Assembly (NCBI GenBank): GCA_964016885.1
Contig: OZ024747.1
Location: 6,448,001 to 6,512,000, forward strand
Length of the DNA stretch: 64,000 bases
Direction of reading: 5' to 3'
Origin: Eledone cirrhosa
Lineage: Eukaryota
Below the pieces are notes generated by a model, which searched no databases, was not told the origin of the DNA, and saw only the letters and a list, made by a program, of their open reading frames with translations. How positions within the stretch are numbered: the stretch's first letter is position 1; each line of letters begins with the position of its first letter. Positions 2,482 through 40,725 of this stretch are shown piece by piece. Both the position numbers and the translations under genes were made by a program.

Positions 2482-2544
2482 ATTTTATCTGATGAAAGCA
2501 CACCATAATTTAACTTGGTGTCCTTGAAATATGTATAATGAAAT
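2482..2544 (+). ncRNA. Minimal type I hammerhead motif (family B, right arm)
   Basis: attttat-CTGATGA-aagcacacca-taatttaact-tggtgtcctt-GAAA-t-atgt-a-TA-atgaaat: stem I, stem II, 2-bp stem III, AUA cleavage triplet. Confidence 0.75.
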
Positions 2545-2792
2545 AAATATGGTTTTATAAATATAGTTTCCATTTGTTAATATCGTATATATATATATAT
2601 ATATATATATATATATAGTGGTAAACAAACCGGGAGGTTACATCTGTAGTAAGTTGTCCGCTCAGTCCAGTGGACAAGTTCCGTATAGAGTTAAGTCCAC
2701 AACAAATTAGCAAACCATACTCGAGGTATATATATAAAATAATTAAGTCAAATATGTAAAATTTGGCTTCGTTTATTATAAATTATAGATAT

Positions 2793-2847
2793 ACTGCTAT
2801 ATATATTTCGGTGACAGCCACCATTGGCTGTGACCTCTTCAGGCAGT
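2793..2847 (-). ncRNA. Minimal type I hammerhead motif (family A, left arm)
   Basis: Reverse complement of 3032-3086. Confidence 0.75.
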
Positions 2848-3031
2848 CCGAATTGGTGTGGGAAAGACAGGTACACATGTTGTTGAAGTGTGTTTTACTC
2901 CATCAATACATCGATACGTCCAGCTTCCTCAGAGAAATAACAACACAACCAGGAGCTGGACATATCGATGTATTGATGGAGTAAAACACACTTCAACAAC
3001 ATGTGTACCTGTCTTTCCCACACCAATTCGG

Positions 3032-3086
3032 ACTGCCTGAAGAGGTCACAGCCAATGGTGGCTGTCACCGAAATATATATAGCAGT
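3032..3086 (+). ncRNA. Minimal type I hammerhead motif (family A, right arm)
   Basis: actgc-CTGAAGA-ggtcacagcca-atgg-tggctgtcacc-GAAA-t-atat-a-TA-gcagt: all core nucleotides, perfect 5-bp stem I, palindromic AUAU loop III. Confidence 0.82.
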
Positions 3087-4113
3087 ATATCTAGAATTTA
3101 TAATAAACGAAGCCAAATTTTACATTACTCCGGAGTAAACAAACCAACCTAAGTACTTCGCGGAGTGCTCCAATCTGCATACTGGGGTGACGGTAAACAA
3201 CCAACATATACTCAATATTTATATATATATATATATATATATATATGTATTTATATATGTATTTATATATATATATATATATATATATATATATATTTAT
3301 ATATATATATATATATATATGTATATATATATATGTATATATATATGTATATATATATGTGTGTTCTATTAGTGATTTTAGTCATTTGACTGTTGCCATG
3401 CTGGAGCAGTTGGCTTATAGGACAGACTAAGATACCTTGATGGCAGTGCTACAGCTTGGCCGCATTCACATAATAACTAAAACCAGTAAAAAGAATATTT
3501 ACACTTATACACGTACGTAATACACTATAACAAACGGAAGTTAGTGCTGGTGTAATTGTAAACAGCTCAGGTCACCCTATTACTAAGAAATTCTATGGAG
3601 CTTTGAGGGTGGTGCTCACATTGTTGTTGTAATTGTTGTAATGTGTTGTTGTCGTCTGAGGTCTCAATGTAGAAATATTTACATAAAGCTCTTGAGGAAA
3701 AAAACGCAGCGCTATTAAGCTGATATTAATGCAACAATGTGGTGCCACACCCTGTTTGGTTACGTAACTAGGTACATGTAGTTCAATGTATATGAATACA
3801 CACGTACACATATACACAAGTGTGTATGTATGTGTATATATGTATGTATATATACATGTATATATATATATGTATGTGTGTATACATGTGTGAATATATA
3901 TGTATATATATATATATATATATATATATATATGTATATATATGTATATATGTATATACATATATATGTATTTATATATATATATATATATATATATATA
4001 TATATATATATATATATACATATATACATATATACATATATGTATATATATATGTATATATATATGTGTGTATATATGTAAATATGATGATTTCTCACGA
4101 ATGAAACAGTTCT

Positions 4114-4217
4114 AGTCCTGTAGAAGCCCTTCTATATTAAAACATTTATACTCTGCTATGTATTGAGTACCTTACTTACTGTGGTTACCTCCGATTCAAC
4201 CCGGAATAACTAATCTT
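4114..4217 (+). mobile_element. (TA)n-abutting repeat 3' end, family H
   Basis: Near-identical to the reverse complement of 38007-38092 (ctctgctatgtattgagtaccttacttactgtggttacctccgattcaacccggaataact). Confidence 0.7.
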
Positions 4218-4294
4218 ATATATATATATATATATATATATATATATATATATATATATATATATATGTGTGTGTGTGTGTGTGTGTGTGTGTA

Positions 4295-4583
4295 CAGGGG
4301 CCTCGTTTGCCTTAAAAATGTGAGGGGGACAAACCAACATTTGTTGATTCTTAAAGGAGCATAAATTACTTATGGTGCCTTTCCTGGACCCTATCACATA
4401 AGTAAAATTTAACGTTAATTAAATTTTATATATTCAAATGAAGTTCAGATATATAAAAAAATGAGCTTAAAAAGAATTTATTATATCAAATAAACAAAAA
4501 ATAAAATATATATGTTTTAAAAAGTGTGTGTGTGAGGGGGAGGGAGAGATTATCACCTAGTACCCCCTTGAAACAAGGCCCTC
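4295..4583. mobile_element. Non-autonomous DNA transposon / MITE
   Basis: Imperfect terminal inverted repeats caggggcctcgttt ... aaacaaggccctc. Confidence 0.45.
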
Positions 4584-4919
4584 ATATATATATTTATATA
4601 TATATAAGTATGTACACGTACATACATATATGTATACAGACGTACAGTAATGTGTATATATACATACATGCACACATATATATATATATACGTATGGATT
4701 CACCGAACAAGAGAGGGAAATGAAATTTTGTTTCATTTTTTCCGTTTATATATATATATATATATTTCGAAGTTGACGTGTATGTGTGTGACAGCTCACA
4801 CCTATGTGTATGTGTGTGACAGCTCACACCTATGTGTGTGTGTGTGACAGCTCACACCTATGAGGGTTTAGCTGGCCTCCTCCAATGTGTATCGCGTTGG
4901 AGGTGCCTTGGGTAGTTTA

Positions 4920-5092
4920 ATGATAGGGACCCCAGTCCTATCATCTCATTTCTACAGCTGAGTAAACTGGAGCAACATGAAATAAGGTGCCTTGCTCAAG
5001 GAAACAACACATCACCCGGTCCGAGTATTGAACTCACAACCTTTCGATTGCAAGCCCAATCAATGCTCTAACCACTAAGCCATGCGCCTTCA
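4920..5092 (-). mobile_element. tRNA-derived SINE family 2 (tail c)
   Basis: Minus strand has ggcgcatggcttagtggttagagc (A box), gagttcaatactc (B box) and ccttgagcaaggcacctt; tail shared with 14725-14846. Confidence 0.75.
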
Positions 5093-38118: not shown

Positions 38119-38160
38119 TATATATATATATATATATATATATATATATATATATATATA

Positions 38161-38339
38161 ACAAAGGAATTGTGGTAAGGAACCAGATGGACCATAACGC
38201 ACCAGAGTACTCAATACTTAGGGTAGTAGAGTGGGAAATAGGAAAAAGTATGACCCCGACGGCAGAGCTCAAGCCGTTTCGACGGAAATAGCCGTCGAAA
38301 CGGCTTGAGCTCTGCCGTCGGGGTCATACTTTTTCCTAT
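38161..38339. mobile_element. Fold-back (TA)n insert, family D
   Basis: 48-bp perfect arms 38238-38285 and 38292-38339 with loop aaatag. Confidence 0.85.
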
Positions 38340-38433
38340 ATATATATATATATATATATATATATATATATATATATTTATATGTATGTATATATATATA
38401 TATATTTATATGTATGTATGTATATATATATAT

Positions 38434-39338
38434 ATAAATCAGGAAAGAAGAGTGACACGGTTTGCTATAGAAAAAAGGTTTTTAATCTCATTGCTGACAA
38501 TTGTTTCTCTGAACTGGTAGGTCTAGAGATCGCTACCCGCTTGTTTTCACGTTATTCGATCACCAATACAAAGTTATAACCAGTCAATTCATCGGAGCTT
38601 GTGAGAATGAAAGGAATATACAGGCATGGCTACTATATATAGTAGTAATGGCATTCAATCAGAACGATAACAAGAATACTAACAATGCTAGCAATAAATT
38701 ATTTGAAATAATCACATCATCAATCTAGGTGGGAAGTATAGTATATCTACGATTTTAGCGTGTAAAACTAGCTGACATGAGGCAGATGTATAAAATTGAC
38801 ATGTCAATTTTATACATCTGCCTCATGTCAGCTAGTTTTACACGCTAAAATCGTAGATATACTATACTTCCCACCTAGATTGATGATGTGATTATTTCAA
38901 ATAATTTATTGCTAGCATTGTTAGTATTCTTGTTATCGTTCTGATTGAATGCCATTACTACTATATATAGTAGCCATGCCTGTATATTCCTTTCATTCTC
39001 ACAAGCTCCGATGAATTGACTGGTTATAACTTTGTATTGGTGATCGAATAACGTGAAAACAAGCGGGTAGCGATCTCTAGACCTACCAGTTCAGAGAAAC
39101 AATTGTCAGCAATGAGATTAAAAACCTTTTTTCTATAGCAAACCGTGTCACTCTTCTTTCCTGATTTATCATTACTCCAAGTGTTTACAACATAGGAATT
39201 ACAGAGTACTCGCAACATCACTATGGAAACGTCTTGTTGAGTCAAACTTAGCCAAGCGTTGATATCATCCACTACCTGGAGTACCATAACTGGACTACAC
39301 TTAAGCGGACTACCTATAACAATAATCTGTTACCCTGT
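38434..39338. mobile_element. Large fold-back (TA)n insert
   Basis: 736-bp spacer-less palindrome 38434-39169 centred at 38801/38802, plus a 170-bp unique tail ending at a TA run. Confidence 0.85.
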
Positions 39339-39461
39339 ATATATATTTTTATATATATATATATATATATATATATATATATATATATAAAGAAAAAAAG
39401 ATGAAATCGAAAATGCAACTGGAGTCTTATTTAAAATAATATATATATATTTATTTGGTTC

Positions 39462-39497
39462 CTTTACCGGTTTCGCAGTTCTTCTGCTTTTCAAAAG
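39462..39497 (-). ncRNA. Minimal hammerhead motif, U3-A8 variant (family F)
   Basis: ctt-TTGAAAA-gcag-aagaa-ctgc-GAAA-ccgg-TA-aag; perfect stem II and palindromic ACCGGU stem III. Confidence 0.6.
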
Positions 39498-40195
39498 TAG
39501 AGTTGAGGTGGAGGGTCTGTGGTTTTTCTCACATCTGTGGTTTTTCTCATATATATATATATGTATATATATATAATATATATATATGTATATATATATA
39601 TATGTATATATATATATATATATATATATATATATATATATATATATATATATATATATATATATATATATATATATATATATGTGTGTGTGTATGTATG
39701 TATATATAATATCTTCCTCTATCATAATTAAATGATACTTTATATTTTTAGATTTAGCCACTTTATTTCTTGTTCATATATGCATGTACTTGAAACATGT
39801 ACGTAAAACATATGTTGCAAATACATAGACATACATACACTACACACACTCAAAGATATGCATGTATATGTATATATATACACACATACACTACACACAC
39901 ACAAATATATGCACATACACACATACACTACACACACTCAAAGATATGCGTGTGTGTATATATATATATATATATATATGTATATGTATGTATATATATA
40001 TATATATATATATATATATATGTAGATTTAACACTTCACTGCTCGCAAGTGTTTTTAAGCTTCATATCATGTCTCCCTATTTTATCTGATGAGAATGCAA
40101 ATATCATCCCATGATGATATTTGTTTTTGAAATGCGCATAATAAAATACATGGAACTCTTTTAACCATCTTTTGATCTTATATTATATATATATA

Positions 40196-40375
40196 TAATT
40201 GTTTCTACTTTTGGCACAAGGCCAGCAATTACCCAGTACATTACTGGTACTTTATTTTATCGACCCCGTAAGGATGAAAGGCAAAGTTAACCTCGGCGGG
40301 ATTTGAACACAGACCGTAAAGGGACGTAACTATGCTGGAAAGCATGGCGTCCGACTCTCTACTGATACTGCCAAT
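40196..40375 (-). mobile_element. SINE family 1
   Basis: Consensus match; flanked by an inverted 26-bp repeat. Confidence 0.9.
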
Positions 40376-40449
40376 ATAATATAAGATCAAAAGATGGTTT
40401 TTTTCTAATTGTCCTTAACACTATAACTTATTAAAATAATATAAACAAC

Positions 40450-40725
40450 TCACTATCCAGGCGGCTTGCAAAAATAATGGTTGCATTTTAAAAGGGTACG
40501 TCAAAGCTTATTTGTAAAACTGTTATATATTGTATTTTGTCTGATGAAGGCATACCATAATTTAATTTGGTATCCCTGAAATATGTATAATGAAATAAAT
40601 ATGGTTTTATAAATATAGTTTCCATTTATTAATATCGTATATCTACTCCAAATACTTGTCGAGTGCTTTATATCAGTTATAAAAATATTTACTTGTATCC
40701 CAACAATTTTAAATAGAACTTTTGC
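40450..40725 (+). mobile_element. Family B, collinear copy
   Basis: Contains in order the spacer, arm and tail seen rearranged at 2180-2588. Confidence 0.8.
40534..40596 (+). ncRNA. Minimal type I hammerhead motif (family B)
   Basis: attttgt-CTGATGA-aggcatacca-taatttaatt-tggtatccct-GAAA-t-atgt-a-TA-atgaaat; two compensatory stem II changes against 2482-2544. Confidence 0.75.

Follow-up and report, generated by a model that had tools for sequence, protein, structure and literature searches.

Paired changes in stem II of putative type I hammerheads distinguish amplified subfamilies of Penelope-like retroelements in Eledone cirrhosa

Paired base changes in stem II of the type I hammerhead motifs studied here are fixed differences between amplified subfamilies of Hydra-clade Penelope-like retroelements, in whose terminal repeats (pLTRs) the motifs are located, judging by sequence features. 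It is likely that these changes were filtered by selection on the sense-strand RNA during copying. The motifs are linked to full-length elements and fall into subfamilies, the amplified forms keep their pairs and have an excess of G·U, and the inserted copies show neutral-looking decay. In the window, i.e. the whole stretch of 64,000 nt that was analysed, the following features were identified:

2260..2593, end of a family B (subfamily B1) element, a short insertion of two 137-nt inverted arms (98% complementary, 60 nt between them), followed by (TA)n
2308..2372, minus strand, inverted copy of the B1 hammerhead with its core at 2364 and identity over 91 nt
2481..2545, plus strand, putative type I hammerhead of subfamily B1; core C3 at 2489, cut predicted after A2537; stem II with A-U (pair 2), C·C (pair 4) and C-G (pair 6)
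2754..3125, end of a family A (subfamily A1) element, a short insertion of two 172-nt inverted arms (99% complementary, 28 nt between them)
2793..2847, minus strand, inverted copy of the A1 hammerhead with its core at 2842
3032..3086, plus strand, putative type I hammerhead of subfamily A1; core at 3037 with A as N7, cut predicted after A3081; stem II with G-C (pair 2), C·C (pair 4) and C-G (pair 6)
31122..31177, minus strand, putative type I hammerhead of subfamily A2; core at 31172 with U as N7; stem II with G·U (pair 2), C·C (pair 4) and U-A (pair 6); stem I with a private C·A break absent from its subfamily
40078..40148, plus strand, putative type I hammerhead of family C; core at 40086, stem III AUGCGCAU; stem II long, with a U·U pyrimidine mismatch as pair 4 (C·U in the family)
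40533..40597, plus strand, putative type I hammerhead of subfamily B2; core at 40541, cut predicted after A40589; stem II with G-C (pair 2), C·C (pair 4) and U-A (pair 6)
63829..63893, minus strand, an eighth, damaged motif, a further B2 hammerhead, core at about 63885; it has a private G·G break at stem II pair 3 and escaped the structural scan

The initial annotation had compared four of these stems, whose letters are all present in the window. In family B, aagcacacca/tggtgtcctt (core 2489) and aggcatacca/tggtatccct (core 40541) differ at pair 2 (A-U against G-C) and pair 6 (C-G against U-A). In family A, ggtcacagcca/tggctgtcacc (core 3037, plus strand) and ggtcatagcca/tggctatcatc (core 31172, minus strand) differ at pair 6 (C-G against U-A) and pair 2 (G-C against G·U). 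As described there, N7 alone varies in the core among the four copies. Since the differences are fixed between amplified subfamilies, the four copies amount to three double changes plus one wobble change rather than to many independent events. The C·C mismatch at the fourth position of each of the four stems had gone unremarked, as had the two inverted copies, the family C and eighth motifs, and the stem I break at 31172.

Based on core and structure, the motifs were assigned to putative type I hammerheads. The core consists of C3 U4 G5 A6 N7 G8 A9, G12 A13 A14, A15.1-U16.1 and H17, the last being A across all three families. Helices I, II and III surround it, with helix I open and helix III only 2 bp long in the monomer. 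No Rfam hammerhead model was present among the 150 matches listed of 234 in the window or among all 26 matches on four single-motif loci; the matches in these listings were to simple-repeat and palindrome models. Sense-strand folding was clearly better than that of shuffled sequences in three of five copies (z −2.0 to −2.9), with no clear gain in the other two (z −0.5 and −0.8). Genome-wide, there are about 90,000 related motifs, located by sequence patterns bearing the core. Patterns with exact flanks matched 10,160 times for family B, 5,608 times for A and 20,020 times for C, and each of the reversed-pattern controls matched nowhere, so the motifs are not due to chance.

The host element was recognized from several loci. 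Locus L103 has the pLTR-ORF-pLTR tandem organization of Penelope-like elements, with hammerheads 4,034 nt apart and an additional inverted 5′ piece, and in L232 (family C) two hammerheads at a distance of 3,709 nt enclose an open ORF of 798 codons; family A is tied to full-length elements via one locus, L097. The L103 ORF contains RWR, DKT, YRDD, a GIY-YIG-like stretch, CxxC and CxH. Both reverse transcriptase (YRDD) and C-terminal endonuclease (VVY...YVG) motifs are present. The Hydra clade lacks the CCHH motif; by eye, one Cys lies between VVY and YVG, tentatively compared with the canonical layout. The ORF had no match to Pfam RT or in a PDB search, and its Pfam GIY-YIG match was sub-threshold (E 0.015). 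RW(K/R), DKT (replacing DKG), CxCX5C and CxxC/CxH motifs together with (TA)n insertion define the Hydra clade (PMC8557442). In our loci, RWR and DKT occur in L103, and DKT and RWI in L232; the CxCX5C linker occurs in L091, L093, L094 and L232, its first Cys being Tyr in L103 and L095; CxxC and CxH lie near the endonuclease end in L103, L232 and L097. (TA)4 follows the 3′ end of 150 B, 88 A and 90 C copies.

The Hydra clade, including Hydra-1_Obim (Craig et al. 2021, PMC8557442), shares with our elements RW(K/R), DKT, the CxCX5C linker, CxxC, CxH, a putative C-terminal GIY-YIG-like domain, (TA)n targets, a pLTR hammerhead, an inverted 5′-truncated copy and a flexible first helix II pair. However, published elements are mostly under 3 kb, whereas the unit here is 3.7–4.0 kb long with a 3′ UTR of about 1.5 kb, and the tail is about 90–100 nt instead of 30–40. 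The Hydra hammerheads listed there have a 3–4 bp helix III and a short unbroken helix II, unlike those described here, and three of our stem III motifs were absent from the supplement of that study. The Naiad and Chlamys types were rejected, given the ORF with a C-terminal endonuclease-like motif. Animal non-LTR retrozymes (PMC7229834; bioRxiv 10.64898/2026.07.22.740005) also have type I hammerheads, a weak palindromic helix III and very high copy number (126,247 hammerheads in the axolotl). They are, however, short head-to-tail tandem repeats without an ORF, an organization not seen in the sampled loci, where an ORF is present and few neighbours lie on the same strand (10 of 106 adjacent pairs from one family; those examined were 1.7–4 kb apart).

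The pairing of amplified and private stem II states was then compared in 293 of 354 copies. Forty-eight family B copies were skipped, many of them from 30 loci with stem II deletions, which had been picked by a pattern with stem II one base short (88 deletion copies were sampled). Flank clustering kept 44 of 89 family A copies; subfamily A2 was lost from it because the A1 and A2 flanks are too far apart, but was included in the pair-state tally. All 13 states common to at least five insertions were paired, against 10 of 70 rare post-insertion states found in one or two places (Fisher p 2e-9). When the class of 3–4 places was counted as shared, the values were 15/20 and 10/70 (p 6e-7). On the ribozyme strand, one-sided changes gave a G·U to A·C ratio of 8:0 among shared states and 7:14 among rare ones (p 0.002).

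Five pair-breaking states occur at 3–4 places and are read as recurrent mutation, the backgrounds having been inspected by eye for B pair 6 C·A only. An apparent amplified A·C at pair 3 was discarded, as it comprised private mutants selected by the search pattern, with G-C in the parent haplotype. Pairing is not strict at the two ends of stem II: amplified 31-nt relatives of family B exist in which pair 1 is A·C and pair 8 is G·A (4 places), and others in which pair 8 is A·A (4 places). An amplified U·G intermediate for pair 6 was not seen in the sample.

The subfamilies were further placed on a tree of the 340 nt upstream of the ribozyme (13 rows), which gave the order B1, B5, B3, B2/B4 with bootstrap values of 100, 98, 89 and 100. 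Along it, pairs 2 and 6 are A-U and C-G in B1, A-U and U-A in B5, G·U and U-A in B3, and G-C and U-A in B2/B4; pair 2 is thus ordered as A-U, G·U, G-C. A simple recombination of B2 and B1 arms was considered as the origin of B3; the upstream sequence of B3 groups apart from B2, although recombination near the ribozyme may have occurred. B1 and B2 diverge by 26–31% in the 3′ UTR and 25–38% at fourfold sites. Of the 20 positions in their stem II arms, 4 differ, each without loss of pairing; of the 12 core positions, none does.

Chance with shared ancestry could produce such a picture if amplification had acted on a small number of founder changes in which pairing was kept by accident. The four compared copies do reduce to only three independent double changes, and the number of both-side-changed pairs among six distinct B rows was not above that of shuffles (258/500). 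Yet pairs 1–3 and 5–7 were paired in 101 of 102 cells across 17 source haplotypes, and this paired fraction (0.99) lay above all 2000 runs of a tree-aware, branch-wise shuffle (null mean 0.79, maximum 0.95; p <= 0.0005), for which the tree was based on about 110–130 nt with weak inner support. Together with the contrast between shared and rare states (p 2e-9), this makes the founder explanation hardly credible.

By this shuffle, the significance of the pairing was not lost after phylogenetic correction, the first of two outcomes named in advance as fatal to the idea of RNA-structure selection in source elements. The second was DNA hairpin conversion, in which correction within a quasi-palindrome, through template switching or conversion, would rewrite one arm to match its partner and yield paired double changes without RNA selection. 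DNA palindromes do arise when the elements insert (of 106 neighbouring same-family pairs, 83 face outward), and every double change is a transition on both arms. However, both sides of an invariant pair were changed in a single family B copy (A·A) of about 10,000 genome-wide and in three family C copies (one paired, two G·A) of about 20,000. At the C·C mismatch, where C-to-G would close the pair, the G:A:T substitution ratio was 19:21:60 against 21:18:61 at a control C (p 0.86; counted by hand in the first 100 rows out of 276 and out of 212, respectively). A DNA process would be strand-blind, yet the shared one-sided states are eight G·U and no A·C. In 402 of 429 motifs the mismatch is still C·C or C·U. 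Conversion is contradicted for the inserted copies, which show no hairpin correction, and we regard it as very improbable overall. With the both-sides counts, the C·C substitution spectrum and the G·U strand bias opposing it and the shuffle significant, selection on RNA structure, as the initial annotation had proposed, is supported.

The mismatch at the fourth stem II position is itself unusual. All 16 amplified haplotypes retain C·C or C·U there, and across the sampled families the pyrimidine mismatch persists while neighbouring pairs turn over. No description of it was found in the parts of the literature compared. In the parts of Cervera and de la Pena 2014 (PMC4209133) consulted, C·C at this position occurs in none of the 56 representative motifs of Fig. 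S3, two of which have another mismatch there (U·U and C·A); no cephalopod is listed, counts reach about 9,000 per genome as opposed to about 90,000 here, and a shared-versus-private test was not found. It is possible, if doubtful, that the C·C/C·U loop lets either the reverse transcriptase encoded by the element or the stem I bulge dock there, which would define a distinct protein-switched subclass of hammerheads, with the roughly 90,000 copies as a fossil record with readable G·U stepping stones.

The ends of the copies bear on how the RNA is used. Copy 3′ ends form two clusters in all three families. Inserted copies all span the predicted cut site, ending 40–150 nt beyond it, and four tandem copies reach 32–82 nt upstream of the 5′ core; the templates would therefore be uncut or re-joined. 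The middle of stem III is self-complementary in its four commonest forms (AUAUAUAU, AUAUGUAU, AUGCGCAU and AUACGUAU), with a computed self-duplex energy of −2.2 to −10.5 kcal/mol, compared with +4.7 when the monomer forms a hairpin. Dimer-acting hammerheads in Penelope-like elements are marked by a short self-complementary helix III, with each transcript unit holding two copies on the same strand; both features occur here.

We suggest that only sources with still-folding RNA leave many copies and that stem II mutations pass via G·U steps. Given the short self-complementary stem III, cleavage would depend on the pairing of two hammerheads, i.e. the two pLTRs of one transcript, probably aided by the element's own protein, and would release unit-length RNA from longer transcripts. 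Uncut or re-joined RNA would serve as the template, with reverse transcription beginning 40–60 or 130–150 nt downstream of the predicted cut.

A comparable system is the Poseidon element PAc (PMC11167929), which, as here, has a pLTR hammerhead, two 3′-end classes and AT-rich targets. Its hammerhead is protein-assisted, and two internal reverse-transcription start sites give the two 3′-end classes. It belongs to another clade, and its ORF begins inside stem II, whereas the ORF here starts about 190–220 nt past the predicted cut site. In that element, cleavage is unneeded for insertion in vitro, where catalytic mutants inserted normally, and RNA ends were not observed at the cut site (PMC11167929). 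The fold might accordingly be selected mainly as a binding or start site for reverse transcriptase, with self-cleavage weak or dispensable and the core a part of the shape or a passenger. This would suit the uncut span of the inserted copies and the upstream extension of the tandems, as well as the 60 nt past the cut site, nearly invariant among B subfamilies, and Naiad elements thrive without canonical hammerheads (PMC8557442). On the other hand, beyond N7 and one-base register gaps, no core change occurs in more than three places among 348 aligned copies, a conservation that is partly circular, as the loci were found by core-bearing patterns. In addition, N7, the sole position free in catalysis, takes all four bases, and stem III changes in sequence yet stays self-complementary. 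We consider a fold kept mainly as a binding or start site unlikely, and selection on the sense-strand hammerhead RNA remains our preferred reading.

Covarying hammerheads in Penelope-like elements have already been published, so the basic phenomenon is known and the surprise is limited; what is new here is a structural variant with a C·C or C·U mismatch within a known kind of feature. The main text of the Octopus vulgaris repeat annotation (PMC13282606) mentions neither hammerheads nor ribozymes, and the copy number found here makes the motif a major unannotated part of such genomes. Whether Penelope hammerheads are useful to the element or mere passengers is stated as an open question in PMC8557442. 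The comparison of amplified with private changes is a direct test of selection, and its outcome favours selection at the RNA level. The invariant mismatch and the A-U, G·U, G-C series of subfamilies provide ready-made variants for telling whether selection acts on cleavage, on protein binding or on both.

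The window contains seven type I hammerhead motifs detected by a structural scan and an eighth, damaged motif recovered by similarity search; no hit to the Rfam hammerhead model was present among the matches listed. The initial annotation had reported compensatory stem II changes between copies and ascribed them to selection on RNA structure in the source elements. The stem II letters it cited are present, and both comparisons stand (stem II pairs are numbered from the core; in hammerhead position numbering, N7 is the free position of the core). The compared copies, of families A and B, are as follows.

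2489: family B; pair 2 A-U, pair 6 C-G; lies in an inverted repeat of 137 nt per arm
40541: family B; pair 2 G-C, pair 6 U-A
3037: family A; pair 6 C-G, pair 2 G-C; lies in an inverted repeat of 172 nt per arm
31172, minus strand: family A; pair 6 U-A, pair 2 G·U

The fourth stem II position is a C·C mismatch in each of these stems. Other features of the window are listed separately.

14190–14269: perfect palindrome of about 80 nt with CTGAAGA in its arms, perhaps the apex of a further inverted insertion
33220–34382, minus strand: ORF pieces, which we take to resemble a decayed LINE reverse transcriptase
38245–38332: near-perfect, GC-rich palindrome of 88 nt
40220–40400: a presumably SINE-like repeat and, in inverted orientation, a short fragment of the 3′ end of family C; both lie between the copies of family C and subfamily B2

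Clusters built only from positions not in the stem II arms resolved the subfamilies B1 (pair 2 A-U, pair 6 C-G), B2 (G-C, U-A) and B3 (G·U, U-A), along with smaller groups; an additional form, B5, combines A-U at pair 2 with U-A at pair 6. The compensatory changes are thus differences between subfamilies. A maximum-likelihood tree of the 340 nt upstream of the ribozyme (13 rows retained from 19 passing the filter, at most five per haplotype) gave the order B1, B5, B3, B2/B4 with bootstrap values of 100, 98, 89 and 100; the subfamily trees are unrooted, so the order gives no direction of change. Pair 2 therefore changed by way of a G·U state that was itself amplified; the change at pair 6 falls on a different branch, and no amplified intermediate was seen for it. 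In a second tree (600 nt, 18 rows, B1 absent), B3 and B5 grouped together, apart from B2.

For the selection test, 293 of 354 copies were used (86 places for B, 73 for A and 63 for C), 61 being left out for indels or core changes, and alternative stem II pair states (pair 4 excluded) were binned by the number of places, i.e., genomic insertions, carrying each. All 13 states found at at least 5 places were paired (5 Watson–Crick, 8 G·U), compared with 2 paired and 5 broken at 3–4 places and 10 paired and 60 broken at 1–2 places. The excess of paired states among shared forms (Fisher p 2e-9; 6e-7 if the 3–4-place class joins the common one) supports the reading of selection on RNA structure. G·U and A·C occurred in a ratio of 8:0 among common states and 7:14 among rare ones (p 0.002). 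Between B1 and B2 (two B1 loci), divergence was 26–31% in the 3′ UTR and 25–38% at fourfold sites, and 4 of 20 stem II positions differed with all pairs retained; stem II therefore changes near the neutral rate while keeping every pair.

Significance persisted after tree-aware correction: 101 of 102 cells (pairs 1–3 and 5–7 in 17 haplotypes, each at at least 3 places) were paired, against a null mean of 0.79 and a maximum of 0.95 in 2000 runs. This null, which imitates that of R-scape, reassigned inferred substitutions along a weakly supported flank-based tree. When the six distinct B rows were taken alone, pairs changed on both sides did not exceed shuffles (258/500), and the percent paired and covariation score were attained by 4 of 500 shuffles.

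The annotation had named DNA hairpin-mediated conversion as an alternative that would undo its reading. Both sides of an invariant pair were changed in one family B copy (A·A) and three family C copies (U-A once, G·A twice) genome-wide. The pair 4 mismatch served as a probe, as a C-to-G change there would close the pair. Mutants at the mismatch (G 19, A 21, T 60; hand tally of the first 100 of 276 rows) and at control position 9 (G 21, A 18, T 61; first 100 of 212 rows) had similar spectra (p 0.86). Inserted copies therefore decay without correction and bear no sign of conversion. We regard DNA conversion or chance, taken jointly, as a very improbable source of the pattern.

Of 429 motifs at 300 places, 302 carry C·C at pair 4 and 100 carry C·U, and one or the other occurs in all 16 haplotypes found at at least 3 places (one of them a deletion class with stem II one base shorter), although position 4 was unconstrained in all census patterns. 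Other pairs vary across the 16: G-C, A-U or U-A at pair 3, A-U, G·U or G-C at pair 5, and C-G or U-A at pair 6. Strict pairing has amplified exceptions, with pair 1 reading A·C and pair 8 reading G·A or A·A. They are carried by 31-nt family B relatives with a longer distal stem II (loci L311–L329 and others), in which C·A at pair 8 and recurrent U·U at pair 1 also occur. An apparent amplified A·C at pair 3 was rejected as an artefact, the pattern having selected mutants of a G-C parent haplotype.

Covariation among Penelope-element hammerheads is already stated in PMC4209133. Neither the conserved mismatch nor the shared-versus-private test was found described in the literature searched, though Lunse et al. 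2017 could contain either; the mismatch was likewise not found among the 56 motifs of Fig. S3 of PMC4209133. Overall, the initial observation is confirmed and its interpretation supported.

In the 3.0 Gb genome, patterns with fixed flanks and stem II left free found 10,160 places for family B, 5,608 for A and 20,020 for C (controls 0), and wider patterns bring in further families. The repeat content suggests that the genome is that of a cephalopod. Five nearly disjoint patterns summed to 91,678 hammerhead-core matches (13,526 + 47,240 + 5,284 + 5,608 + 20,020) versus 169 for reversed controls, with each inverted twin counted by itself and small overlaps remaining.

A full-length element (L103) consists of an inverted 5′ piece, a terminal repeat (pLTR) with the hammerhead, an ORF, a 3′ UTR of about 1.5 kb, a second pLTR 4,034 nt downstream of the first, and (TA)n. 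Its ORF (L103:2091–4320) encodes RWR, DKT, YRDD and a GIY-YIG-like stretch, with a single in-frame stop ahead of the terminal CxxC and CxH. A family C locus (L232) holds an open 798-codon frame, 49% identical to this ORF, between hammerheads 3,709 nt apart, and family A is linked to a 42–51% identical ORF at a single locus (L097). Pfam searches of the element ORF gave no RT match and a GIY-YIG match below threshold; a PDB sequence search gave no matches. The predicted protein motifs agree with the Hydra clade as defined in section 11 of PMC8557442. Its supplement lists hammerheads for Hydra elements, among them an octopus family whose motif differs; a search of that supplement for three of the stem III motifs of the present families found none of them. 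The family C copies at L139 and L111 have unrelated RVT_1 frames as neighbours, and one of these frames includes a PHD finger. A further two types of hammerhead lack the C·C mismatch (L047:1150, L088:1068, L005:2255, L065:499); helix III is missing from one and stable in the other, and both types probably come from other Penelope-like lineages.

Stem III of the monomer has two pairs (+4.7 kcal/mol), but its eight bases form a self-complementary run (duplex energy −2.2 to −10.5 kcal/mol), with UAUGUA, UAUAUA, UGCGCA and UACGUA as common middles, first met in scans imposing no palindrome. This short layout is the one for which dimer action has been described (PMC4209133, PMC6765202). Copies of families A, B and C end 40–60 or 130–150 nt beyond the predicted cut site, and four tandem copies reach 32–82 nt upstream of the 5′ core; the templates were therefore uncut or re-joined RNA. 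In family B, stem I runs on beyond a bulged purine, reaching about 14 pairs. The 60 nt past the predicted cut site (window 2546–2590 and homologues) are nearly invariant among its subfamilies, and this region is a candidate start of reverse transcription.

Uncut or re-joined templates are compatible either with the processing into circles that PMC4209133 proposes or with a template role in which cleavage is dispensable. The latter has a precedent in a Poseidon element: cleavage was dispensable in vitro, and its hammerhead needed protein in order to cut (PMC11167929). We judge it unlikely that the fold was selected mainly for binding protein. From the sequences, we consider it rather probable that these elements carry a selected ribozyme, predicted to act as a dimer and probably helped by protein.
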